From Octopus vulgaris (lineage: Eukaryota), in NCBI GenBank assembly GCA_951406725.2, contig OX597842.1:28830001-28894000 (forward strand): a stretch of DNA of 64,000 nucleotides, given 5' to 3'. Numbering within the stretch: the stretch's first letter is position 1; each line of letters opens with the position of its first letter. The translations under genes were made by a program, and so were the position numbers. Positions 32,915 through 51,730 of the stretch are shown here, one piece after another. The notes beneath the pieces were generated by a model. The model ran no database searches. It was not told the origin of the DNA and saw only the letters and a list, made by a program, of their open reading frames with translations.

Positions 32915-33689
32915 GAATCACTTCGCTTCTCTTTCAAACTCTTTTTCATTCTTTCTCTCCTCCTTTCTTTCTCTCTCTATCCTGGCAAACGAGAAGACAA
33001 ATATATCAGATGGACTCAATGAATAGAGCCAGCATCCAGTACCTCACTCGAGAAGGGCGGCGACGATTCCCCAGCTTTGCTTAAACTCTGAAAGAGACTT
33101 AGACCGACAGACAGACATCTTGACGTCATGAAACAAGAGGATGCATATTCTGGCGCTTAGAGCCATCTTTTCCGGCACCGTTCAGTTTTGATCGTTTCCC
33201 GAGTGATTCACGCCACCGATGTCGTCGGATGATACTAAGTTCTTGACACCGAGCTACACCACGCCTCCGATGCGGGATCATGTCTTCCGCAAGAATAGAC
33301 GCAACACACCGCAGTGTGGTAGCTGTTCTCTTAAGCAAGTCTCTCCGAACAGAATCGCTGATCCTAAACAGACGATGGTTTACACCTCGTCGAATGAACG
33401 GGCGCCCGGGAGACTGATTGTTTTTTTCGTATCATCGGATGGCAGCGGTGAGCGGACCGATGCTGGATCACCGTTTGAGTGGTTCCAATGACATACGGAC
33501 ACACTCACCATAACCGTCAGGTGTCCGTTGCGGCCCACGAGACATACGGTTTTCAATGTGAGTCGGAGAAGTGGAAGTGAATCAACGACTGGAATTGCAA
33601 TCGAAAAAACACTCAGAAGACGCGACATCTGCTGATTTACTTTATTGCCAACTGAGTTAAACAGTTTTCAATTCGAAATTGTGTTTCAA

Positions 33690-34844: not shown

Positions 34845-34851
34845 CCTTAAG

Positions 34852-36519
34852 TGGGGCTTGATGGTTATGACCCACGAACCTTGCAATGGGTGGGTGTTCC
34901 TACTGCTCATCCACTTGGGGTGAACTTACACTAATAACACGTCTTGATACGATTTGTCCCCACCCCACCGAGTTTCGTTGGGGGCAGAAAAGATATAGCG
35001 GTTGGGGGCACCTGCGGTGTCCTATAGGAACACCGGTGTGGGTGGTGTATAGGGGGATATACACCTGCAGTGTCCGATTGGAACATTGGCAGCGAGGTGA
35101 GAGGGTGGATGCACCATCAAGTTTGTCTGGTATGTTATGATCTGCCGGGTTTAACCCGGGAGATGGATGCACTGCCAGGATTCACCCACAGGGACACTAC
35201 CTTGTCGTGGTTTAAGAGCTTACGTCTGCGGGTGGGACGCAAGCCGTTATTGGCCTTGCGGGCGCCAACCCGTCCGCAGACTAACTAAATGTGTCCTTCC
35301 CCCATAGCGGTTCCAATTAATTGGTGGGGACCAAGCAGTGTGGAGGATTATCGTGTGCAGAGTGGGATGATACCCTGCTGGTTGGTCGTGGTTGCGCTTG
35401 TCGGCCTCCTGCTCATCCGGATCGGCCACTACCTGGCATCGGTGTGGTGTGAAGGCCCCCTATTTCTATATTAGAATTTCACGGGGCGGCGCCCACGGAC
35501 GGCCAGGGTCAGAACGGCTGGGTTCGCTCTCCGGATTGGGCTGCTGACGGGGCGAGGTAGGGATGGGGTGCTTCCATCCTGCCTCTTATCTCGCCAAAAG
35601 TTAGCGCCTCGTGAAGGTTGCTGTCCCTGCTGTCCCTGGGTGGCTCACGACATTGTCTCCTGACGCCAGATTGTTGTGGCTCACACATGTTAATGTGGGA
35701 GTGGACTCACTTTTGGCCTCACTACGGGAGCCAGTCAACTGACGGGTAAACCGTCAATAATGAGCCCTGGGTGGTTCACGACATTGTCTCCTGACGCCAG
35801 ATTGTTGTGGCTCACACATGTTAATGTGGGAGTGGACTCACTTTTGGCCTCACTACGGGAGCCAGTCAACTGACGGGTAAACCGTCAATAATGAGCCCTG
35901 GGTGGTTCACGACTTTGTCTCCTGACGCCAGATTGTTGTGGCTCACACATGTTAATGTGGGAGTAGACTCACTTTTGGCCAGCATCCAGTACCTCACTCG
36001 AGAAGGGCGGCGAGGATGCCGGGTAAACTGACGGGTAAACCATCAGTATTGAGCCCTTCGCGGACTGTTGCAGGGTATTTGGCTTGGTATGCGGATTTCG
36101 GTTGGCTAGGGAGGATGTTTGCTTACGGTCTGCAGGGTTTGACTCCTTACTCTTGTACTCTTGATTTTCTTCCTTTTACTCTTGGAAAATGCCGCGAAGT
36201 CCAATTCTTCAACTAAAAGTTAAGAAACACACGGTTGCCAGGGGCCGTATAAGATGGTGGCTTGTGGGCAAAAGAGCGGGTCTCCAAGCCAGGCCGAGCG
36301 TGTTGCCCAACCACGTTGGGCCGATATCAACGCTTCCTGCAGTTGTATAGAGCCATTTACACTGCAGGTAATACTAATGGCTCACATACCTAACTCGACC
36401 CTGATAGTTTCTATCGGATCCTGCACATAAAACCCCCTCGATGAAGTCCTCAAAATTTCTTTTTTTTTTTTTTTTTTTTTTCGAGGACCGAGAGGCTGGC
36501 GTGTAGGATGCCTCTCAAT

Positions 36520-36550
<31 letters not shown>

Positions 36551-36826
36551 AGGTGGCATGGTTTGGGGGCCGTGCCTCGATATGAGCTTAAAATTAAAAC
36601 ATAAGAAAAATTAAAATAACAACCCGGATTAGACTTTCAGCTTCTTCTGCCCATCGAAAAAGCACCCGCTTCGCTGTTAGTTTTAGATCCCCACTACTTA
36701 GGTAGATTTTTGTTTTTTTTTTGTACTTTTTTCTTTTAAGATTAACACAAGCTGGGACCTGGCTGGACAGTGTGGGACAACCCACGTTAAATAAAGGGAA
36801 GGAGACACTATTTAGTCTCACTTAGA
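34852..36826 (+). mobile_element. Non-coding ~2-kb insertion at the exact R2 site of 28S (non-autonomous R2 derivative, SIDE-like)
   Basis: Preceded by 28S CTTAAG (34846-34851) and followed immediately by TAGCCAAATGCCTCGTCATC (36827); no RT ORF. Confidence 0.75.
35634..36057 (+). repeat. Three tandem structured repeats (131, 131, 158 bp) inside the R2-site element
   Basis: Units start CCCTGGG at 35634, 35765 and 35896; internal hairpins such as TGACGG-GTAAA-CCGTCA. Confidence 0.9.
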
Positions 36827-36866
<40 letters not shown>

Positions 36867-36901
36867 CGGATCAACGAGATTCCCACTGTCCCTATCTACT
36901 G

Positions 36902-36936
<35 letters not shown>

Positions 36937-36943
36937 CGGATCG

Positions 36944-36983
<40 letters not shown>

Positions 36984-37700
36984 TTTTGTGAGGGCACACG
37001 GTAGGCGTAGCATAGGCGGTAGCATTCGCGTTGCCCCGCGCCGGGCGCTGCCGTCACCGGCGGCGCGCTGGCGTGCTGTTCGTTGTCCGCACCGTCGCGC
37101 TTCGCGTGCGGCGGTCAGTCTCGTCGGTGCGCCGTGGGCGCCGTCGGCTAAGCGCGTTCGACGTCGGGGTGTCGCGCGCGTTTGCGACGATGAAAAACCG
37201 CCACTTCCGTAGTTTCCTCGCTCACTCGATGGAGAAGGGATCGGGCCGTCGCCGAGCGGTGGTTCATTATCTGGTGCGAAGCGCGCGGTGCATGTCGAGC
37301 GCCTTTGCGGGCGCCGGCGCAGCCGATGCGCGACCCTTAGTCGAGAACAGTGTCGGTCGGGGAGTTTGACTGGGGCGGTACGTCTGTCAAACGGTAACGC
37401 AGGTGTCCCAAGGCGAGCCCAGCGTGGACGGAAACCACACGTCGAGCAAAAGGGCAAAAGCTCGCTCGATCTCGATTTTCAGTACGAATACGGACCGCGA
37501 AAGCGTGGCCCATCGATCCTTTCCAAATTACAGCGGCGAGCTATGCGTCCGCCGAGAGGTGTCAGAAAAGTTATCACAGGGATAACTGGCTTGTGGCGGC
37601 CAAGCGTTCATAGCGACGTCGCTTTTTTATCCTTCGATGTCGGCTCTTCCTATCATTGCGAAGCAGAATTCGCAAAGCGTTGGATTGTTCACCCACTAAC

Positions 37701-37747
<47 letters not shown>

Positions 37748-38390
37748 TCCTACCGATGCATCGCGCGTACGCGGCGCCCCGAGTCGCGTCGGGGTACTCG
37801 GCGTGCGGTCGAGGCGGCGGCGCGCTCGCGCGTCGTCCGTCCTGGCCGTGCCGCCGGCGTTTCTCCGGCCGACCTTAGGCGGGCGTCGGCAACGTCAACT
37901 CGGCTACGGCTATCCCGTCCAGTACGAGAGGTACCGCGGGATCAGAGCAACGGTTTGCGCGCTCGCTCGATAGAGCGGTGGTGCCAGGCTGCCTCTGAGC
38001 GATAACGGCTGAACGCCTCTAAGCCGGAACCGTAGCCGGACCCGAGTTGTTTTCCAAAAGCGTCTCAACCTCAAGGCGCATGCCTTAGCTCGGCGTTCGC
38101 CGTCCGCCCGTCGCGTTCGCCGTCCGCCCGTCGCGTTCGCCGTCCGCCCGTCGCGTTCGCGCGGCGAGCGGCAGCGTCGCCGGCGGAATTGCCATTCGGG
38201 GACGCGGCGGCGACTGCGGCGTTCGCGCCGTAGTCGTCTGCTCGTCGTCCCGCCCCGACTAGTTTGAAGAGATCGAGACGAAAGGGATCGCTTGCATACG
38301 ACCCGACTTGCCGTTCGGAGTGACGTGCTTAGTAGAGCAGCTACCACACTGCGATCTATTGAGTCTCTTCTCGCGAATGACACGATCCGC
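36827..38390 (+). rRNA. 28S: 28S rRNA, 3' portion downstream of the R2 site (orphan copy)
   Basis: TAGCCAAATGCCTCGTCATCTAATTAG, GGGATAACTGGCTTGTGGC, GAGCTGGGTTTAGACCGTCGTGAGACAGG, SRL-like AGTACGAGAGG; 3' end approximate. Confidence 0.93.
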
Positions 38391-38829
38391 CCCTTCGAGG
38401 CGGAGAAGCAGGTGCAGGAGGAGGTGCGAAAGATGGCGAAAGTGTTGCGGCTGGGAGTCGGAGTTACGAAGTGTTGCGTTGCGTTGTGTCTTGTCTTGTC
38501 TGCGGCGATCGACTCGGCGCGCGGTAGTAGTCGTCGCCGTAACCGCCTTCGTCTCGGCCGCCGAATCGAGCGCGCATCGGCTTAGCAGCGCGCGCTCCGT
38601 TGCGGGTTCGTTTAAGTGAGAAGTGGAAGAAACGGCACCTCCTGTTTAGTGCGCGCGTACACGGGGTTGTGGCGCCAGCATGCGGCATTCCGGCCGTTCG
38701 TAACCTCCTGCACCGCCGACGAGTTGTTGCTCGTCGGCATCGGGCCCGAGCCCCGGTCTCGCGCAGCGACGGACAGAGTCTGAGTAGTACGCGGCGGACA
38801 CCGCGAGTGCGGGTTGTCGAAGCGGCGAG

Positions 38830-39062
38830 TTCTCGGCATCGTCGTCCGATTGGCGAGGCGCCGCGTGAACGGATCGAAGGCGAGGAGCGTGTCCCTGTCT
38901 ACTGTCTAGCGAAAGCAGAGCCGAGGGTACGGGCTTGAAGAAGTTCTCGGTATCGAGCGCGGGTAAACGGCGGGAGTAACTTCGACTCTCTCAACGGATC
39001 GAAGGCGACGAGGATATTCCCGCTGTCCCTATTTACTACTGTCTAGCGATAGCAGAGCTGAG
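38830..39062 (+). other. Degenerate rearranged copies of the 28S R2-target region within the IGS
   Basis: AGCGCGGGTAAACGGCGGGAGTAACTTCGACTCTCT at 38956-38991 and two TGTCCCT.T.TACTGTCTAGCGA copies. Confidence 0.85.
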
Positions 39063-39099
39063 TTACGACGAAGACCACGAGTGTGTGTTATCGACGCGA

Positions 39100-41190
39100 T
39101 CGAAGCGGCGATTTCACGTGCCTGGTATATCGAACGAACGCACCTAAGCTCGCGGTGTCGCCCACGGGCACCTGGACGTAGCCACGACCTATGCCGCAAG
39201 GATGTCACGAGATACACGCGGTCGATGGGGCGACGTGGTCCGTCGCGTGAATTCCCGAAAGATGACAAACTGCGGCCAGTGCAGGTATTGGCGGGCCTGC
39301 GCCAGTCGCGCGGAGCTCCGCCGCGCTGCCGTGCCCGATCTAGTGAGGCTGAAGCGAACATCAGGCTCTCGCCCACGTCAACGTGGACGTAGGCGCGATC
39401 GATGGCGTCAGTCTCCGTGGGCGTGTGGCGATACGCACCGGGTAAATGGAGCGACGTGGTCCGACCCGTAAGTCGAAGGAATCAGACCCGTATGCTTACG
39501 GGTCGGCCCCGGCTGGATAGTCACGCTCTAGGTGACCGCCGCACCCCAAGGGGGTCAAGACTATATTGAGGGCTTGCAGTCGGCAGGTGGATGTCTCCGG
39601 GACCGTTCGGAAGGCCTGCGCCGGTCGCCCGTTGCTCCGCCGCCCTACCGTGCCCGAAATCGAAAGAACGAACCTAAGCCCGCGGTATGGCCCACGTACA
39701 CGTGGACGTAGCCGCCACCGATGCCGGAAGGCGTTCACGAGATACCCGCGCTCGATACGGCGACGTGGTCCGTCCCGTAAAATCCCGAAAGATGACAAAC
39801 TGCGTCTAGCACTAGGTAGCGGCAGGCCTGCGCCAGGCCTGCGCCGGTCGCCCGAGTCTCCGCTGCCCTACCGTGCGTGAAATCGAGAGCACGAAACTAA
39901 GCGAGCGGTATCGCCCACGTACGCGTGGACGTAGCCGCGACCGATGTTGCGAGGTACAGGCGTTCGATACGGCTACGTGGTCCGTCCCGTAAATTCCCGA
40001 AAGATGACAAACTGCGGCCAGTGCAGGTATCGGCCGATAGCGGCGGGCCTGCGTCCGCCTTCGCCCGCGCCTCTGCCCGCCTTCGCCCGCGACTCCGCCG
40101 CGCTATTGCGAGGCTGAAGCGCGCCTTAAGCTAAACTTGCGCTCTCGCCCACGTACACGTAGACGTAGGCGCGATCGATGCCGTCAGTCGCCGGGAGTGC
40201 GTGGGGATATGCACCGGGTAAAAACAGCGACGTGGTCCGACCCGTGAGTAGGAGAAGGTGCTCGGACCGTGAGCAAACGGATCGGCCCCGACTGGATAGG
40301 TGACCGTCGCACCCCAAGGGGGTCAAGACTATATTGAGGGCTTGCAGTCAGCAGGTGGATGTCTCCGGGACCGTTCGGCAGGATGCCCGAGACGTTAGCC
40401 TAAGACGACGTCAGCCCGGCGGGTGGCCGCCGCCTTCGCGCCGCCTCGCTTTCTCCGTTAGTCCACGCGCAGCGGGGACGTTGGCGGCAGGCCTGCGCCT
40501 GTCGCCCGTTCCTCCGCCGCGCTACCGTGCCCGAAATCCAAAGAACGAACCTAAGCTCGCCGTATGGCCCACGTACGCGTGGACGTAGCCGCCACCGATG
40601 CCGGAAGGCGTTCACGAGATGCACGCGGTCGATACGGCGACGCGGTCCGTCCCGTAAAATACCGAAAGATGACAAACTGCGGCTAGCACGAGGTAGCGGC
40701 GGAAGGCCTGCGCCGGTCGCCCGCGTCTCCGCCGCCCTACCGTGCGTGAAATCGAAAGCACGAACTTAAGCGGGCGGTCTCGCCCACGTAAGCGTGGACG
40801 TAGCCGCGACCGATGTCGCGAGGTGCGGGCGTTCGATACGGCGACGTGGTCCGTCCCGTAAATTTCCGAAAGATGACAAACTGCGGCCAGTGCAGGCAAC
40901 GGCCGATAGTGGCGGGCATGCGCCCGCCTTCTACCGCCTTCGCTCGCAGCTCCGCCGCGCTACGGCGAGGCTGAAGTGGAGCTTAAGCGAAACTTGCGCT
41001 CTCGCCCACGTACACGTGGACGTAGGCGCGATCGATGCCGTCAGTCGCCGGGTGTGCGTGGCGATATGCACCGGGTAAAAACAGCTACGTGGTCCGACCC
41101 GTGAGTAAGGAGGTGCTGGGACCGTAAGCAAACGGATCGGCCCCGGCTGGATAGTCACGCTCTAGGTGACCGTCGCACCCCAAGGGGTTC
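39100..41190 (+). repeat. rDNA IGS subrepeat array (~220-bp subunits within ~0.8-0.85-kb higher-order units)
   Basis: GTGGACGTAGCC...GTGGTCCGTCCCGTAAA..CCGAAAGATGACAAACTGCGGC occurs five times; GGTGACCG.CGCACCCCAAGGGG occurs three times. Confidence 0.9.
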
Positions 41191-41215
41191 CAGACTAATA
41201 TGTAGGGTTGTGGTT
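41140..41215 (+). promoter_or_regulatory. Putative RNA Pol I gene promoter/initiation region, with spacer-promoter duplicates at about 39510-39575 and 40285-40345
   Basis: Repeated block ends in AGACTATATTGAGGG twice and AGACTAATATGTAGGG in the last copy before the unique ETS; resembles invertebrate TATA..RGGG Pol I start sites; inference. Confidence 0.5.
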
Positions 41216-42535
41216 GATCGGCATAGGTTACCGTCTCGGAGGGATGTCCTCGTAGCTCCTTTTCTGACGACGGTTAGCTCCCCGTTTGCCGGTGCAAGAT
41301 CGACTCTACACGGCCGGCGCGTCCTCGAATTTCCGCCGCCGAACCGCCCGCCTTTCAGACGCTGCGTTCGCCCGCCCGTTGACGCCCGCGTTTGCCCGCC
41401 TTCGCCCGCCTTTTGAAGCTCGCCTTCATCCGCCTTCGCCCGCCTCTGGACGTCCGCTTCTTCACGCCCGCCTATTAGACGCTGCGTTCTACCCGCACCT
41501 TTCGACGCACGCCTTCGCCCGCCTTCGCCCGCCTTCGCCCGCCTTCGCCCGCCTCCGAACATCCGGAGGCGGGCGAAGGCTGGCGCGTCCTCGAATGTCT
41601 GCCGCCGCCGCCACACCGCCCGTCTTTCAGACGCGCTCCCTCGACGCCCGCGTCTGCCCGCCTCTTCACGCCCGCAGGTTCGTCCTCTCGCAATCGAACC
41701 GCTTCTCGTTACCGCGTTTTTTTTTCTTCCGACCCCCGGCCTCGTCTTCGCAGCCGAGGACCCGGTCAGGTTACGCCGCTGACCTCGTGTTGCGTCGCCG
41801 CCGGCGCGGCGGACGGGCTAGCCGTCGCTTCCCGTTCCCCCACAGGCGACGCGGCGTCTCCGAAAGAGAGCGGTGCCGTGTCTGTCCCCTTCTTCCCTAG
41901 ACAGAACCGTGGCTTCAACTCCGGGTTTCGCTGCCTCGTAGCGTTTCTGCAGCTTTTTTTTCCCTTCCCGGCATCACCCCGCCTTGGCGCGCGTCGTTTT
42001 CGTGGCGACCACCGTCATGGCATTCGCTCGTTGACCGCAGTCCGGACGCAGTTCGTCGCAGCCGTTTCGAAAGGATCAGGTGGAGGAAGCGACGACGACC
42101 ACCGACGCATAGGGCGCCGGGCGAGTCTAAAAGCTGCAGCGGGCCCGCGCCAATCGCCGCTGCCCCTCTCGTCTGCCGACCTAGTCGCTGGCCTTCTTCG
42201 CCTTCTCCTCCTCTTCCGCCCGTAACCGGCCCCACTTCAAATCGACCCGCACCGGAGCCCGTCCGCAGCGGCCCCGGTGTGCGGCAGTCGGATCGCAAAC
42301 CGCTTTTGCTCCGCGAACGCTTCTTCGCGCGTCGACTCGTGTTGTTTTCGCCTCTTTTCCTCCTCGGGGAGGAGGCGCGCGCGTATACGAACGGCGGCCG
42401 AACTCGTGAGCGCCCGTGCCCCTGTTTTCGGCCCCTCCGATTCCTTTCGTTCTCGTTTTCGTTTCCGATCGTCGGCGCTGCTTCCCGAGCTTCCGCCGCC
42501 GCCGCGCATCGTTCTCTCGAAACGTACGTCGGTGA
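41216..42535 (+). other. 5' external transcribed spacer (includes GCCCGCCTTC-type short repeats)
   Basis: GC-rich unique sequence between the last promoter-like block and the 18S start. Confidence 0.65.
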
Positions 42536-44155
42536 TACCTGGTTGATCCTGCCAGTAGTCATATGCTTGTCTCAAAGCTTAAGCCATGCAAGTGTAAGTT
42601 CATGCCGTAAACGAATGGTGAAACCGCGAATGGCTCAGGAACCGGACCTAATCCTCGGGACCGTATTCTTCCACCGCGAGGAGAGTGGATAACTGTGGCA
42701 ATTCTAGAGCTAATACATGCAACCGAAGCCGCGATCGCACGTCGCACCCGGGTGTCGGGCTCGAAAACGGCGTTCGGCAGCCGTCGCGTCTTCGCCGTCG
42801 TTCGCCGCCGGCGTCCGCTCGGCCGGTTCGGGGGCGGCGCATCCGCGCCCGTCCCTCCCGGTCGCGACGATACGGTCGGCCTTCCGCATTGGTCGCGGCG
42901 CAAATATTAGACTGAGACCGACGCGTTCGGGCCGTCGCAGCCGCCGCCGCGCCTTCCGCGCGCGGGTCTTAGGCGTGCGGCGGCTTCACGCCCTTCGATT
43001 TTGGTGACTCTGGATAACTGTCAGTACGATCGCACGGGCTAGTATCGCACTAGCCTTCGCGCGACGGGTCCCCCGCGAGTCCGCCCTATCAACTGTCGAC
43101 GGCCCGGTCAGTGCCGACCGTGGTGGCAACGGGTAACGGGGAATCAGGGTTCGATTCCGGAGAGGGAGCATGCGAAACGGCTGCCACATCCAAGGAAGGC
43201 AGCAGGCGCGCAAATTACCCACTCCCGGCACGGGGAGGTAGTGACGAAAAATAACGACGCGGGACTCTGTCGAGGCCCCGCGATCGGAATGAGTACACTT
43301 CAAATCCGTTAACGAGAATCGACCGGAGGGCAAGTCTGGTGCCAGCAGCCGCGGTAATTCCAGCTCCGGTAGCGTATATTAAAATTGTTGCGTTTGAAAA
43401 GCTCGTAGTCGGAATTCGGGTCTCGAAAACGTGCCCCAGCACGTTCGGGGCGACGGCGCCGTCGCAGGCGCGCTTCTGGCGCGTCCGCTTCGGTCGTCCG
43501 TTCGCACTCCCGGCCCTATTCGCGACTCGGCACCCCGTCCAGCGCTCGTCTTCGCCCGCGCCGCGTCGCGTCCGGTTTCACGCCTGCGCCTTCAACGGCG
43601 CGGGTCGGTCAGGCGCGCGCGGGAGCCACGAGGCGGGTGCGCTATTGGGCGTCGTCGCCGTTCGCGTTCTAGCGGTAGTAGCGCGTCCATCTCCCGGTCG
43701 TTTCGGCCCGCACGGTTCCTCCGAGGGTGCTCTTCGCCGAGTGTCCGAGGCGGCCGGTACGTTCACTGTGAAAAAATTAGAGTGCTCAGAGCGAGCCCCG
43801 CCGGCTTGCATACGAAAAGCATGGAATGATGGAAAATGGCCTCGTCCGCGCGTCATCCGTCGGTCTCCGTTCACGACGAGGCAATGATCGAAGGGAGCGA
43901 TCGGGCCACTCGTATTGCGACGTTAGAGGTGAAATTCTTGGATCGTCGCAAGACGCACTGCAGCGACGGCGTGTGGCAAGCACGTTTTCCTCGATCAAGA
44001 GCGAAAGTCGGAGGTTCGAAGACGATCAGATACCGTCGTAGTTCCAACCGTAAACGATGCCGACTAGCACTCTGCGAGTATTCGCTTCGATGACCCGGCG
44101 GGGAGCCTGCGCGGGAAACCATAGTCGGTTCCGGGGGGAGTATGGTTGCAAAACA

Positions 44156-44201
<46 letters not shown>

Positions 44202-44880
44202 GCGGCTTAATTTGACTCAACACGGGAAAACTCACCCGGTCCGGACACCGGTAGGATTGACAGATCGATAGCTCTTTCTCGATTCGGTGGATGGTGGTGC
44301 ATGGCCATTCTTAGTTGGTGGAGCGATCCGTCTGGTTGATTCCGATAACGAACGAGACTCCGGCCTGCTAATTAGCGCGTCGATTAGTGCTTTTCCGGTA
44401 GCGCGGCGGAGCCGAAGCCGTCGTCGGTAGCTCCGCGCGCGGCCCGGGCTTGCCGTTGCCGCCGCTCTCCTTCGCGTCCGGCGCTGCGGCCGCGTCCGGC
44501 TGCCGTCCCCCTCGCGGGGGCCGTCGCGGCGTGGTTGCGGCGTCGGTTGCGGAGCGGCGGCGGTGACCCGTCGGCTCGGCCCGCGCGAGCCCGGCGGCGG
44601 CACGCCGACGCGTCCGGGCCAGTCGGTTGGCGAACGCAGCGCTTCTTAGAGGGACGGGCGGCAGAAAGCCGCACGAGGCGGGGCGATAACAGGTCTGTGA
44701 TGCCCTTAGATGTCCGGGGCTGCACGCGCGCTACACTGGAGGTATCAGCGGGCGCGTCTCCCCCGGCCCGAGAGGGTCGGGAAACCTCTGAACCACCTCC
44801 CGTGATAGGGATCGGGGCCTGGAGCCAACCCCGTGAACGAGGAATTCCCGGTAGGCGCGGGTCATCAGCCCGCGTCGATC

Positions 44881-44923
<43 letters not shown>

Positions 44924-45080
44924 GGAACGGTCCGGTGAGGTCCTCGGATCTGGCCGACGAGTCCGCTTACGCGCGGCGGCGTTCCGCGCCGTCGTCGGCA
45001 TTCCGCGCCGTCGTCGGCGTTCCGCGCCGTCGTCGGCGCGTTCTCTGATGGCCCGGAGAAGACGACCGAACCCGATCGCT

Positions 45081-45138
<58 letters not shown>
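42536..45138 (+). rRNA. 18S: 18S rRNA (expanded, about 2.6 kb)
   Basis: TACCTGGTTGATCCTGCCAGTAGTCATATGC start; GTGCCAGCAGCCGCGGTAATTCC; TTGTACACACCGCCCGTC; GTAGGTGAACCTGCGGAAGGATCATTA end. Confidence 0.97.
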
Positions 45139-45567
45139 GCGCCGTCTTCTTTCGAAAACGCAAACTTGCGATCCGCCCAATTTCTTCCAAGTCGCGGCCG
45201 GGCCCCCTCGCCCGAGTACCACCGAATGCTCTTGTTTCGGCCCTCTAACAGCGCAGCAGTAGCAGTCGCGGCAGCCCGCCGACACGCCGCACTCTCTGCT
45301 GCCGACCGCGCAACCACCCTGCCGGCGTCGGCCCGCCCTCATGGCGCTCGGACGACGGGGCTTGCACGCTTTGCGAGCTCCATGACCATTTCTCTCTTCC
45401 TTCCTACCTCGCCGTTGGCGTCGGCAGTGGCGCGCTTCGTTCCGCTGTCGACGCCTACGAATTTTATTTTAATTTTTCCGTCGCGCGGCGGCGGCCTCCT
45501 GTCGGGGGCCGCTGCCGCTTTCCTTTTTCTGTACGTGTAGCGTGTAGTAGTAGTAGCAAATATACCG
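45139..45567 (+). other. ITS1
   Basis: Lies between the 18S end and 5.8S start. Confidence 0.85.
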
Positions 45568-45728
45568 AAACCCTGGACGGGGGATCACTCGGCTCGTCCG
45601 TCGATGAAGAGCGCGGCTATCCGCGTGAACTGATGCGAATTGCAGGACTCAGTGAACATCGACACCTCGAACGCACATTGCGGCCCCGGGATCCTATCGT
45701 CCCGGGGCCCCGTCTGGTCGAGAGGCGG
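45568..45728 (+). rRNA. 5.8S: 5.8S rRNA
   Basis: GGATCACTCGGCTCGTCCGTCGATGAAGAGCGC...GAATTGCAGGAC..GTGAACATCGAC..CTCGAACGCACATTGCGGC; ends approximate. Confidence 0.93.
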
Positions 45729-46201
45729 TCAAGACACGAAAACGCAGTCCGCCGCGGCCGTTGGCTGCGGCGGGGAGTCGGGAGTCGCAGGAAAGGGCGG
45801 CGCTCGCCGCGAGGCCCGCATTATCTCGCGCGCGTGCCGCCGCCGCTCGATCGTCCGTCTCCCGTAATGCCAGACCGTCATCGTTGCGAAGCGCTGTTGC
45901 GGAGGAGGGAGCCCGCCGACGAGCGGAAGCAGAGGAGTAAGGATGATCAGTAGCAGGAACGACAACGGCGGCGACACGGCGAGGCCCCTCGTCCCTCCGC
46001 GTCCTCCTCTACGTTCCCCTCCGAGCAACCGCCGCCCTCCGTCGCCGTCGCTGCCGCCGCCGCCTCGTCTTTCGGCGTTCGCTCTGTGGGAATATCTCTT
46101 TCGTGCGAGCGTTCGTGCCGATCGACAGCGGTGGTGCGCCGGTAGCAAGCTGCGGCAGCCGTCTCTTTTGCAGCGGGGAACTCTTCCTTTTTTTTCACGC
46201 T
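45729..46201 (+). other. ITS2
   Basis: Lies between 5.8S and 28S. Confidence 0.85.
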
Positions 46202-47439
46202 GCCCTCGACTCGGACGCGATTACCCGCCGAACTTAAGCATATCGCTAAGCGGAGGAAAAGAAACCAACCGGGACTCCCTAAGTAACGGCGAGTGAACCG
46301 GGAGAAGCCCAACGCCGAATCTCGTCGGTCGCAACGGTCGTCGAGAGCTGTGGCGCAAGGGTCGTACACGGTCGATCGTTTCGCCCGGCTAGGTTCGGAG
46401 TCCCCTCGATCGGGGCTGCCCAGAGCGGGTGCCAGGCCCATTCGGAGCCGGCGGCGATCGGCGGTGTTCATCGGCCCGAGAGTCGGGTTGCTTGGGAACG
46501 CAGTCCAAAGCGGGTGGTAAACTCCATCTAAGGCTAAATACGGGGACGAGTCCGATAGCCGACAAGTACCGCGAGGGAAAGTTGAAAAGAACTTTGGAGA
46601 GAGAGTTCAAGAGACCGTGAAACCGCCCAGGGGTAAACGGGTAGGACCGCTCACCGCGATCGCGAGGCGACTCAGTCCGCTGCTTCCCGCCGAGGCGCCG
46701 TCGTCGTCGACGAACGCGCCGGTGGCGGCCGCTCGTTCCGCGGGCGGAGGTCTGCCGCCTCGTCGGCGTTCGATTTCCGGGGCGCCGGCATCGGACGCAC
46801 TTCCCCTCCGATCCGTCGTCGCGACTCGTTTCCCGTCGGGCCGGTAGGCGCGCGGCGTCCGCAGGTCGCAGACGAGAGCCCCGTCGCTGCCGCGCAAGCG
46901 GCGGTCGGTGGGATCCACGCGCTCTTCTCGACCGGGCCCGTCGCTCCACGTAAAGCGCAGGCACGGCTAACCGACGGAGACGGGCAAACGCACCTCGCCC
47001 TTAGCACGAACGACGCAGCGAGTCGCGCGCGGCCTCTTCGGAGGTCGTGAGCGACGCGGCCGCCCGCGCGCCGCGACTGCGCGGAACCCTCGCAAGGGGG
47101 CGACGCGCGTTGCGGTCGCCGTACACCCCGCCCGAAAAGCCGCCCGCTGCTGCCGGTCAGCGACGAGCATCGGCAACCTACCCGACCCGTCTTGAAACAC
47201 GGACCGAGGAGTCCCAGTCGACTGCGAGTCGTTGGAGCCTTTCACTTCGCGAACTCCGACGGCACAGCGAAAGCGAGACGGCGCTCTGACTCAGGTGTAG
47301 CAGGCGGCCGGGGACCCGAAAGATGGCGATCCACGCCCGGTCGGGACGAAGCCAGAGGAAACTCTGGTGGAAGTCCGAAGCGCCTCTGACGTGCAAATCG
47401 ATCGTCGGAACCGGGTGTTGGGGCGAAAGACCAATCAAG

Positions 47440-47485
<46 letters not shown>

Positions 47486-49334
47486 CGCCAGCGGGAGAAT
47501 GACACGCAATTCCGTCCGGTAAAGCGAACGACTGGAGGCCCCGGGGACGTTGACGGCCTCGATCTACTGTCGAACTCGGGACGGGCGAAACGGGCCGCTC
47601 CTCTCCCGATCGGAGGCGGCCGCCGTTATGCGACGACGAATGCACGGTGCCAAGTGGGCCACTTTTGGTAAGCAGAACTGGTGATGTGGGATGAACCGAA
47701 CGTCCGGCTAAGGTGCCCTACGCTTCACCCATTAGATCCCCGAAAGGGTGTCGGTCGATATAGACAGCAGGACGGTGGCCACGGAAGTCGGAATCCGCTC
47801 AGGAGTGTGTAACAACTTACCTGCCGAATCGACCGGCCCCGAAAATGGATGGCGCTGGAGCGAGCGACCGATGCCGGACCGGCCGGGCGACAGGTTGCGC
47901 GATCGCCGGCGAGGCGACTTTCCGATGCCCGGTCGAGTAGGAGGGCGCCGCGGCGTGCATGGAAAGCCGCGGGCGCGAGCCCGGGTGAAGCCGACCGCGG
48001 GTGCAGATCTCGGTGGTAGTAGCAAATATTCGAACGAGACCTTCGAAGACCGAAGTGGAGAAGGGTTCCGTGCCAACGGTGGTCGAGCACGGGTCAATCG
48101 GTCCTAAGAAGCGGGCGAAAGCTTCCACGAAAGGCGCCGGATCCGTCGTTAGAAAACAAGTACTACTCCCATAGTTCGACGTAAGTTACGCGGCCGGCCT
48201 CGCATCGAAAGGGAATCGGGTTAATATTCCCGAACCCGAACTCGGAGAGTGCCCGTCCGTCGGTGGGAACGCGGCATGCTCTTCCTAGCAGCGCGTCCGT
48301 CGTCGAAGCCGGCGGCCGGGCGAAGCAGCGGCAACGCAAGCGAGCCCGGAGACGTTGCCGGGAGCCCCGGGAAGAGTTCTCTCTTCTTCGTAAAGGACCG
48401 CGTCCGTGGAATCGGCTCGTCCGGAGATACGGATATGGTACCTGTAGAGCGCCGCGTCTCGGGCGGCGTCCGGTGCGCTCTCGGCGACCCTGGAAAATCC
48501 GGGTCCGTAACGAATCGCAGCTCTCGAGTCGGTCCGTACCCACCATCCGCAGCAGGTCTCCAAGGTATACAGCCTCTTGTCGATAGCGCCAATGTAGGTA
48601 AGGGAAGTCGGCAAAATGGATCCGTACCTTCGGAAGAAGGATTGGCTCCGAGGACCGAGTCGGTCGGGCCGTGTGTGTCGCCTCGCTCCCGCGCGGTCGC
48701 GTCGCCGTTCGCTCGGCGTCGCGCCGCCGGGCGCCGGAACACGTCTTCACGCGAAGCGGCGGACCGGTACAGGGCTGTAGCGTTGGCGTCGGACTCGGCA
48801 TCCCGGTGCGCCCCATTTTTCCGACGGTCGTCGCTGCGTTGGCGGGCAACCCGCTTCGCCCCGATGCGCGGTCGCGCCTTCGGTCAACGCGGGTCGGCTT
48901 CTACGCACGCGTTCTCTCCCTCCGCTGCGCTGCGTTCTGTCGCGTGCCGCCGCCTACGGACCTCTCGGTCCGGAAAGAGCGCGCGTTGCTGGGACGTCGT
49001 TGCGGCTGCCAGATCCGCGCGCGTGGCCTTCTCGTGCGTCGGCACGTGCGCAGGCCGTCGTTCGTTGCGGTGGCTCGGTTTCATACGGGGCGCCCGGGGC
49101 GTAGTGGGCGCGAACAAAACGATTCCACACACGGGACGCCGTGGAGCGACACGGCTTCGGGCTCGCCGTCGCGTCCGTGCGCGCACGGCTCGGCTCCGCA
49201 AGGGGTCGGTCGTCGTCGCGCGACAGGCGTTCGGCCGGCGGCGAACGGTCGACTCGGAACTGGTACGGACCGGGGGAATCCGACTGTCTAATTAAAACAG
49301 AGCATCGCGTAGCCGGCCGAGCCGCACAGACGCG

Positions 49335-49366
<32 letters not shown>

Positions 49367-49412
49367 AGTGAAGAAATTCAACCAAGCGCGGGTAAACGGC
49401 GGGAGTAACTAT
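46202..49412 (+). rRNA. 28S: 28S rRNA, 5' portion, ending 13 nt upstream of the R2 site
   Basis: ACCCGCCGAACTTAAGCATATC, GACCCGTCTTGAAACACGGACC, and terminal AAGCGCGGGTAAACGGCGGGAGTAACTAT. Confidence 0.95.
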
Positions 49413-50091
49413 TTAACATGCAAACAGTGAGCGGTGTTCCACAGGGCACTGTTTTGGGACCACTACTGTTCATAATGGCCCTCTCAGACATGCCCTCAGC
49501 CACACAGAGAGCCACAATCACAAGTTATGCAGATGATACAAAAGTTTCACAGGCAATACAGAACCCTGAGGACACTAAACGCCTGCAATGTGAGCTGGAC
49601 AAAATATACAAGTGGGCTGAAAAGAATAGCATGCAGTTCAATGCTGAAAAGTTTCAAGCTTTATACTATCAGCATGCAAAACTAAATGCAATACCCAATG
49701 AATACACTGGACCCAGAGGAATAGCAATCCCAGAAGCACAATCAGTGCGTGACCTGGGTATTTACATGAGTGATGACGCAACCTTTCGTGTACATGTTGC
49801 TAAATTGGCAATGAAATATAGACAACTGGCCGGATGGATTCTTAGAACCTTTAGAACAAGAGAACAAGAAACCATGATGGTCCTCTGGAAGACACTTGTC
49901 CTAAGCCACTTTGACTATTGCTCTCAGCTATGGTCACCATCCAGTGTCAAGTTGATCACAGAACTTGAGGCGATCCAACGTAGCTACACGAAGAAGATAA
50001 CCTCTGTGCAGAATGTAAGCTACTGGGAAAGACTCAAGAGATTAAAGCTCTATTCCTTGGAGCGTAGGCAAGAAAGATATGCCATAATATA
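49413..50091 (+). mobile_element. Continuation of the split CR1/L2-like LINE RT
   Basis: ORF 49418-50110 (SGVPQGTVLGP...YADD...LYSLERRQERYAII) resumes the RT broken at 34844. Confidence 0.93.
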
Positions 50092-51730
50092 CACTACCGT
50101 CAGAAATTAATTAGCACCCTTGATTTTCTCTTCACTCAAGGTATTTGCTGTCACCTAGTGGCCATATCTCGAACTATTGCTTTGTTGTGAGTTCACTGTT
50201 GCGCAGAACGATGACGTAACTTTGTTTGCAGAGCAGTTTGAGAGTCTACAGCCTAATGATGTTGACATAGCAGTGCAACAACAACTTGGAGTGCGGATGC
50301 AGACAAATCTTCCTTTGTTTAATAGATATAGGTAGCGCCTCGCAAGGACCGAAATCACACCGTACTAAGTTTTCTCATCGCGTAAGACATTTTGAACAGC
50401 TCGTAGGTTAAATGATTTGTGTATTTGCAAGATTTTTTTCCTCACAAATTCTCCTACACTCTGCTTGATGACGTCACTTCTGGTTCACAAAACTTTCTGT
50501 TAAACATCAAATAAGGTGAGAAATTCTGCTTTCTTTCTTTTTTGTTTAATGAATAATAACTCATAGCAGTTTTGTTATAGCATAACATTATTCAAATGAA
50601 TAGTTTTAATGAAAATAACTGGTTTTTATCGTTCATTCCTAGATAGGCCCAAGACCTCGCATGACCTTGGAGAGATGGTACGAGGCTCTCTCGTGGCGTG
50701 GGAAGCTGTCGGAGGCTGCAATAGCCAGAAAACTTGGTGTAGCCAGGCGCACAATTCAGTGCTTATTTAAGAAATACGAGGAAACTGGATCAGCAGCTGA
50801 CAAAAAGGGTAGGGGACGGAAGAGGCTGACGACCCAGCGGGAGGACCGGATGCTGATCCGAAAGTCGCTGTACAACCGAAGGGCAACGAGCCAGCAACTG
50901 GCGGAGGAGATGCAAAAGATGACAGGGAAGCAGTTGTCTACAACCACCGTCAAGACCAGATTACTGGAAGCTGGTCTAAAATCCTGTAGGGCCGCTCCTT
51001 ACAGCCCAAAACTGGAAGAGGCGGCTGCTCTGGGCCCGTGCCCACAAGACATGGACCGTGCAGCAGTGGTGGACAGTGATGTTCACTGACGAGTCGCGAT
51101 TCAGTCTCGTCAGTGACAAGCCTGTCCATGTGCGACGCCGCAGGGGTGAGTGCTTCAACAAAGACTGCATTGCTCTCACCATGAAGCATAGTGGGGGTGG
51201 TCTGATGGTGTGAGGGGCGTTCAGCTACAGTGGTGTTGGGCGGTTCTATGCCGTCGAAGGCAACATCAACGCAGCAAAGTGCGTTGAGATAATACGGGAT
51301 ACCTCTTTGGTGGCGAGGAGTACGTGCTCCAACAGGACAACGTGCCTTCCCACACAGCCAAGCTCACAACCGGTTTCTTCAAGGACCATGGGGTGACAGT
51401 CATGGACAGGCCTGGCCAGTCACCTGACCTGAACCGACACTAGCTGTTTGGGGCACTTCTTGCTGCATGGAGGGCCATCCCTGCACAGTACCTGCAGGCA
51501 CTCATAGACAGCATGCCGACCCGCGTAGCAGCTGTCATTGCTGCCAAAGGAGGAGCAACAAGATATTGACTAAATTTCACGATTAATAACAATTATGTGG
51601 TGTGCTGGGATATGTTTTAATAAATTTTTGATTATAAACGAGTTCGTTTCTGATAATAAGTTAATTAAATTAAGAAAATGTAAGAAAATGTAGAAATTTG
51701 AGAAGTGCTAATTAATTTCCGACGCAAGTG
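50092..51730 (+). mobile_element. Tc1-like DNA transposon (defective transposase), TA target duplication
   Basis: TA|CACTACCGTCAGAAATTAATTAGCAC ... GTGCTAATTAATTTCCGACGCAAGTG|TA; HTH ORF 50661-51089, FTDESRF, QQDN and SPDLN motifs; frameshift, stop and deletion of the catalytic Glu region. Confidence 0.92.

Follow-up and report, generated by a model that had tools for sequence, protein, structure and literature searches.

A candidate second target for R2 retrotransposons in the ribosomal DNA spacer of Octopus vulgaris

The stretch analysed here, referred to as the window, comprises 64,000 nucleotides of the Octopus vulgaris genome (assembly GCA_951406725.2, contig OX597842.1, positions 28,830,001 to 28,894,000 of the forward strand). 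It lies on the contig designated C29 of the 2.8-Gb genome and contains one orphan unit of ribosomal DNA (rDNA). This orphan (window positions 34847-49412) is a single rDNA unit opened at the site in the 28S gene at which the retrotransposon R2 inserts: it begins with TTAAG and a complete short R2-family element, continues with the unit and stops at position -14. Signed positions are counted throughout from the bottom-strand nick of R2, TTAAGG|TAGCC. Our subject is a block in the intergenic spacer (IGS) downstream of the 28S gene, in which parts of the R2 target region are found a second time. In all searches of the genome DNA the best 40 candidates per search were scored, and the counts given here are lower bounds.

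For the protein R2Bm, the sections of Wilkinson 2023 (PMC10499050) that deal with target recognition name two motifs, RUM (-34 to -22) and RASIN (TTNANNT, -6 to +1), which together with their distance govern nicking; positions +6 to +37 do not. In the window, the degenerate copy of the 28S sequence downstream of the nick that the original prediction had described (copy 1) was confirmed, with a local alignment score of 79 as compared to a mean of 16.3 and a maximum of 27 in 500 shuffles. The near-perfect copy of the upstream sequence is equally real: positions 38956-38981 match 28S -41 to -16 at 26 of 26 bases, a match that apart from the gene itself has no equal in the window and is never reached in the shuffles, and this core (copy 2) runs into a second downstream copy. 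Between copies 1 and 2, as many as about 90 extra bases are present in older orphans, among them 28S -90 to -42. A fainter third copy, suspected at about 38620-38670, is within chance (score 18, reached by 57 of the 500 shuffles); in older orphans the equivalent region reads TACTGCGCGC, which is less like 28S than the window is. The predicted deletion of the cut site holds for the window, where RASIN is absent due to a 6-bp loss found elsewhere only in an orphan on C3, but not for the spacer in general, as all seven assembled units of the main array keep TTCAGG|TG.

Table 1. Features of the orphan rDNA unit and of the spacer block (positions in the window)
Feature	Position	Strand	Remark
Non-autonomous R2-family element, ~2 kb	34852..36826	+	3' end joined to TAGCC at 36827
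28S 3' half	36827..38388	+	First base is the canonical R2 nick (+1); Rfam end 38388
Copy 1, degenerate 28S +10..+108	38836..38937	+	Downstream half only, without RUM and RASIN; internal control
Linker from spacer subrepeat	38938..38955	+	Not 28S
Copy 2, upstream core, 28S -41..-6	38956..38991	+	Intact RUM (-34..-22) at 38963-38975, RUM as in PMC10499050
Pseudo-nick	38992..38993	+	6-bp deletion scar in the window orphan; array allele TTCAGG|TG
Copy 2, downstream part, degenerate 28S ~+39 to +97	38993..39062	+	In the array, 141-bp subrepeats come next
Long IGS subrepeats	39063..41200 (end approximate)	+	
18S, 5.8S and 28S 5' half of the orphan unit	42536..49412	+	Last base is -14 relative to the next canonical nick
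18S	42536-45138	+	Rfam
5.8S	45569-45727	+	Rfam
28S 5' part	begins 46224	+	Rfam

The main tandem array lies on C20 (23.94-24.085 Mb) and has seven assembled units with a 28S 3' end. The block is present in all of them and identical across the site, as expected if it belongs to every unit; that it is private to the orphan is thereby ruled out. The array units read ...CTCTCTTCAGG|TGAACGG at the site, and the longer reading, GCGGGTAAGCGGCGGGAGTAACTTGGACTCTCTTCAGG|TGAACGG, corresponds to 28S -41 to -1, altered by five substitutions but free of indels, and continues directly with 28S +37. An extension of the 28S homology to -58 was discarded, as -42 to -58 are subrepeat sequence. The array-wide deletion comprises 28S +1 to +36 and begins at the nick, a T microhomology leaving a T at +1. 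RASIN is kept as TTCAGG|T in all seven units, and the distance from RUM to the nick is exact. RUM itself is the same as in 28S in the window and in older orphans; in the array it retains 12 of 13 bases, with the exchange A-30G lying outside the A-W-W-W-G-C consensus of the motif. Lost from the array allele are the 4-5 nucleotides of 3' homology (TAGCC) for priming: they are replaced by TGAAC, which matches only at +1 and +5.

Public sequencing runs show the same block under a second organism label. Parts of the stretch are found in 20 of the 24 listed runs (11 studies, four organism labels), of which five were examined in detail, as contigs. No RNA run with the stretch is recorded, which has no bearing on its expression. 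High-depth contigs of the block occur in four of four runs (labels B, B, B and C), with no difference of at least 1% listed from +24 to -71; at other places in the block, label C has fixed differences of its own. The contig that spans the nick in run X9 has a depth of 12,466, as compared to 13,603 and 13,050 for the flanking contigs and 17.6 for a contig with the junction from C14 described below, with the reservation that contig depth is not a copy number. These depths and the lack of listed differences indicate that most rDNA units are intact across the spacer site. No new junction at the array allele was among those listed for the public runs (contigs only, which is not proof of absence), and the spacer junction pattern had no match in metagenome contigs.

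The genome encodes an R2 protein that could act on such a site. One of the seven array units carries a 4.75-kb insertion at the canonical position with an intact open reading frame (ORF) of 1276 amino acids, which lies at G000:C20:24066325-24070152 on the minus strand. The ORF matches RVT_1 (5e-27), its best structure matches are the R2 proteins 9nl2 and R2Tg (E<1e-152), and the alignment to R2 structures covers the zinc fingers, the Myb region, the reverse transcriptase (RT) and the C-terminus. With a single ORF for zinc fingers, Myb, RT and restriction-like endonuclease at the 28S R2 site, the element is, judged by its sequence, an R2 of the three-zinc-finger lineage. A second lineage, R2B, shares about 60% identity in the RT half, and its four copies on C18 are broken; the insert on C9 is an internally deleted R2B. 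Moreover, short non-autonomous R2 derivatives are present. The element in the window has no sense-strand ORF of more than 150 amino acids, and on C14, C18 and C20 members of its family occupy the spacer site.

What these proteins would do at the array allele can be predicted from other species. R2Bm binds -38 to -7, and its contacts with A-4, A-3 and G-2 aid target-primed reverse transcription (TPRT) if the RNA lacks 3' homology (PMC10499050, target sections); off-targets of the three-zinc-finger R2Tg retain -19 to -25 and match 4-5 nucleotides of 3' homology, according to the parts of PMC12222951 that describe them. The array allele keeps RASIN, the spacing and -19 to -25, has one change in RUM and no 3' homology, and should thus be bound and nicked but primed poorly.

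Junctions in the genome indicate that the spacer site has been used. A motif from the 3' untranslated region of R2 gave 35 hits, and the reversed motif none. Twenty hits are TAGCC-type junctions (one of these, on C7, sits in a spacer-flanked copy), four are at the spacer site, four lie inside tandem stacks, six outside rDNA, and one is unrelated; among the 35, R2 3' ends were joined to rDNA at no position other than these. The four spacer junctions (C9:113.36, C14:30.21, C18:79.80 and C20:11.45 Mb) are at +1, and all lie in dispersed older copies. They are all distinct: +2 to +36 are missing, and short target-like letters precede the TG, i. e. AAGG, AAGAAGG, TAAGGGGAGG and AAAG. At the canonical junctions inspected, TAGCC follows immediately, with one exception, where a larger deletion follows. 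The variety of the spacer junctions is what would be expected for priming without homology. On C14 and C18 both flanks are of the spacer type, and an intact 28S 3' half lies upstream; the C18 locus contains a tandem series of two R2B copies and two short elements.

If the spacer site had never been cut, these junctions would have to stem from recombination between insertions at the canonical site and the 28S homology of the spacer. Some loci fit such a history: the element at C20:11.44 has its 5' end in 28S and its 3' end in the spacer, C28:10.21 is a 28S-spacer fusion, and C9:113.36 has a 28S-type 5' flank. However, recombination in the +37 to +108 homology would leave TAGCC...GCGCA beside the element, which is seen at none of the four junctions, and the flanks at C14:30.2 and C18 as well as eight small indels at the nick are left unexplained; we regard this possibility as very improbable. 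Even less credible is that an uncuttable site was fixed in the spacer, as the original prediction had it when taken literally. The window copy does lack RASIN, and none of the seven array units is hit; but the RASIN-less allele occurs in two orphans and in no array unit, the array allele retains the RASIN consensus and the spacing to RUM, and R2-family 3' ends are joined to the site at four loci.

Scars at the nick point in the same direction as the junctions. Both flanks are present in 17 dispersed copies. A disruption at the nick or within 10 bp of it is seen in 13 of these: small indels in eight, R2-family insertions in sense orientation in three and inverted R2 fragments in two. The indels (about 5-45 bp) are found in the window and at C1:94.39, C3, C5:8.70, C14:25.7, C16, C27 and C33, and several of the deletions at the nick lie between microhomologies. 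The scars of cutting and repair suggested by the original prediction are thus borne out for the 6-bp loss in the window and for seven further orphans. The inverted fragments lie at the nick at C20:23.65 and at +10 at C1:148.63, a young orphan. Undisrupted are C1:41.39, C2, C5:100.9 and C11. Not counted among the 17 are copies with unclear or absent spacer context (C5:36.16, C11:86.13, C2:52.47, C27:27.19, C4:35.69 and C1:194.26 Mb (RUM-bearing)), with one flank only (C20:11.44, C28:10.21, C28:24.89, C26 and C7) or with duplicated flanks (C20:23.639 and C18:79.825). In the control, the junction of copy 1, which has the same downstream sequence without RUM and RASIN, an indel was found in none of 14 aligned dispersed copies.

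On balance, we lean towards the view that the block is a second R2 target of low efficiency that became fixed in the spacer, which is likely nicked by the octopus' own R2 proteins and whose breaks are mostly scarred and less often filled with R2. Its presence in the array, the exact spacing of RUM and RASIN, the R2-family 3' ends at +1 and the indels centred on the nick are the observations behind this view. The history of the site may be read from the dispersed copies. On C7, an element is followed by 28S +1 to +108, spacer repeats, 28S -90 to -7 and an R2B-like insert, and on C25, +13 to +108 are flanked by spacer repeats. In the part from -88 to -42, C7 and C26 have 0-1 changes relative to 28S and C14:25.7, C16, C18 and C20:23.6 have 7-10; younger copies lack that part. 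The older orphans seem to preserve a once complete copy of the 28S target that was trimmed towards the R2 recognition core. A piece of 28S from about -90 to +108 may have entered the subrepeats, probably left over from an R2-bearing unit that had collapsed, and would then have been duplicated, spread and homogenised by concerted evolution, and eroded. A separate case, C1:115.29, consists of a spacer repeat, 600 bp of 28S, a deleted R2B and spacer repeats.

A deletion starting from the nick would then have removed +1 to +36. With these bases lost, the TAGCC co-transcribed on the R2 RNA would find no partner in the primer, which would make TPRT inefficient and untidy. Since no rRNA function protects the site, cut alleles would be scarred or replaced, and the array would drift to weaker alleles, A-4C and then A-30G. 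On this view the spacer site would act as a leaky sink for R2, a role that would not require host selection.

Several observations weigh against this interpretation. A copy-1 fragment at C20:5.05 Mb is broken by an inversion 11 bp past the junction, and copy 1 at C14:30.2 has a 28-bp deletion that ends 11 bp before it. A disrupted site is found in none of the seven array units, and four of the five youngest orphans (spacer divergence below 6%) are undisrupted, one of them with T+1 changed to C. All R2 hits are in dispersed copies, and cutting could have followed their departure from the array; the 6-bp loss shared by the window and C3 may be a single event; and the motif rules are taken from insect and bird R2s. 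The junctions at C14 and C20:23.6 occur in runs of both labels B and C and are thus old. Moreover, the present array allele may already be resistant. In the spacer, the four undisrupted copies differ from the array by 0.8-5.9% and the nine measurable disrupted ones by 2.9-19.5% (Mann-Whitney p=0.006), the legible older alleles are TTAAG and all disrupted, and four of five TTCAG copies are undisrupted. A model with a constant hit rate fits as well, and A-4C as the cause of resistance had to be given up, its effect being inseparable from age. Finally, the core has been stable while the adjacent 28S-derived sequence drifted, for which neutral decay is a poor explanation.

This last point leads to a more far-reaching proposal: a host-evolved, DNA-encoded defence, in which the spacer would hold a decoy reduced to the smallest element that R2 recognises and devoid of priming homology. 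In each unit the host would keep one RUM-RASIN site away from the rRNA genes to bind and waste R2 protein-RNA particles; the lost 3' homology and A-4C would allow binding and nicking but rarely integration, and R2 would be diverted into dead-end nicks and insertions. We consider this possible but rather unlikely. Four mid-age orphans differ from 28S at 0-1 of 25 positions in the core (-41 to -17), as compared to 7-10 of 46 in the adjacent -88 to -42 (Fisher p=0.02-0.08, for a window picked post hoc in four orphans that share one history). However, when the windows were fixed in advance, the predicted better conservation of the recognition motif did not reach significance, neither for the core against the downstream copies (5/41 vs 35/159, p=0.19) nor for RUM plus RASIN (2/20 vs 47/230, p=0.38), nor for the five substitutions, which all miss key bases (p=0.28). 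The trimming in the array ended at -41, just beyond the region bound by R2Bm, but this endpoint carries a GAGC/AAGC microhomology. There are no indels between RUM and RASIN, and nine of nine key bases are retained, yet the newest change, A-30G, lies inside RUM. The repeated changes at -15/-14 argue against simple conversion from 28S, and the presence of the site in most units, with its uniformity in the four runs, would suit a decoy. On the other hand, the gene itself is still occupied by R2 in one of the seven array units, and a cuttable site in each unit also means more breaks.

It is improbable, in our estimation, that a host Myb-type factor, such as a Pol I terminator or fork-barrier protein, preserves the core about 570 bp past the 28S end and that R2 cutting is a side effect. 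The sequence offers a candidate site, GGGTAA, which the spacer of a single unit contains seven times, all on one strand; five of these are GCACCGGGTAAA copies within the long subrepeats. GGGTAA may resemble a Reb1-type site. Yet the kept stretch reaches to -16, including the RASIN spacing, and thus goes beyond GGGTAA. In the long subrepeats of the window, GCACCGGGTAAA is found at 39437, 40213 and 41069, with five copies per unit on C20 and always on one strand; it resembles the 5' half of RUM.

Several further arrangements of R2 and rDNA came to light. Many other orphans likewise begin, stop or are filled at the canonical R2 site, which suggests an R2-linked dispersal of rDNA. In the window, an RT-like sequence (49413-50093) directly follows the orphan, and an isolated inverted 76-bp piece of the 28S 3' end lies at 33275-33350 on the minus strand (82% identity). 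The element in the window contains a 131-bp tandem repeat (35634-35980, 2.6 copies), whose copy number varies among members of the family. On C29, a stack of about 12 head-to-tail units (G000:C29:25.636-25.702 Mb, L145-L151) combines up to 200 bp of upstream 28S flank with the 5' part of R2B; no downstream 28S was detected in this stack. At G000:C18:79.798-79.826 Mb (L056-L059), an R2B upstream of a canonical TAGCC junction has a 5' flank of the spacer type, beginning at -88, and in most windows differs by 0.4-0.6% from the copy at the spacer site; it may have arisen by duplication in place or by retrotransposition of an RNA transcribed from the spacer site. Short tandem copies of the RUM region occur outside rDNA (L142, C27:27.188 Mb; L128, C4:35.690 Mb; L135, C1:194.26 Mb). 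As for the units themselves, the 18S gene of the window is GC-rich and about 2.6 kb long, with long expansion segments, the first internal transcribed spacer (ITS1) has three repeats in array units and one in the window, and about 520 bp within the 5' half of 28S are tandemly duplicated in one of the array units (G000:C20:24048586-24048532).

The persistence of R2 is usually ascribed to a target that is unable to mutate. A second target in each rDNA unit would be free to do so, and its successive alleles are preserved in dispersed orphans. They would form a natural allelic series for the question of which bases a three-zinc-finger R2 needs for binding, nicking and priming, which would be useful for R2-based gene insertion. 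The idea of a decoy is directly testable because the same genome has an intact R2 ORF.

Endonuclease-resistant alleles are known from homing endonucleases and gene drives, where cut alleles are replaced by scarred or drifted ones; in the octopus this would take place within a tandem array under concerted evolution, and the comparison is an analogy only. R2 is known in Mollusca, and the words 'octopus' and 'spacer' were not found in the main text of PMC5035012 or of PMC12247875. No published description of an R2 target copy in an rDNA spacer was found, judging by titles and the opening lines of abstracts, in literature searches that covered few subscription journals. As compared to the canonical target, as the relevant sections of Wilkinson 2023 (PMC10499050) present it, the spacer site shares RUM, TTNANNT, the spacing and the insertion base, but lies in the spacer, lacks +2 to +36, does not code for rRNA and carries A-4C and A-30G. 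Insertions of R2 and R1 in pseudo-28S and elsewhere outside the 28S gene, covered in parts of PMC10499050, PMC12222951 and PMC2718515, likewise use target-like sequence with imprecise junctions; they are scattered, whereas the octopus site is homogenised, with one per rDNA unit. A duplicate of the 28S target region close to R2 is also seen in fish R2 with a 28S-derived 3' UTR and in the target shifts of R8 and R9, according to sections of Kojima 2016 (PMC5035012); there the element is altered or carries the copy, and here the host spacer carries it. Finally, the non-autonomous SIDE elements of R2, as portrayed in portions of Eickbush 2012 (PMC3414825), are likewise short, have R2 ends and sit at the R2 site, and unlike them, the short elements of the octopus also occupy the spacer site.
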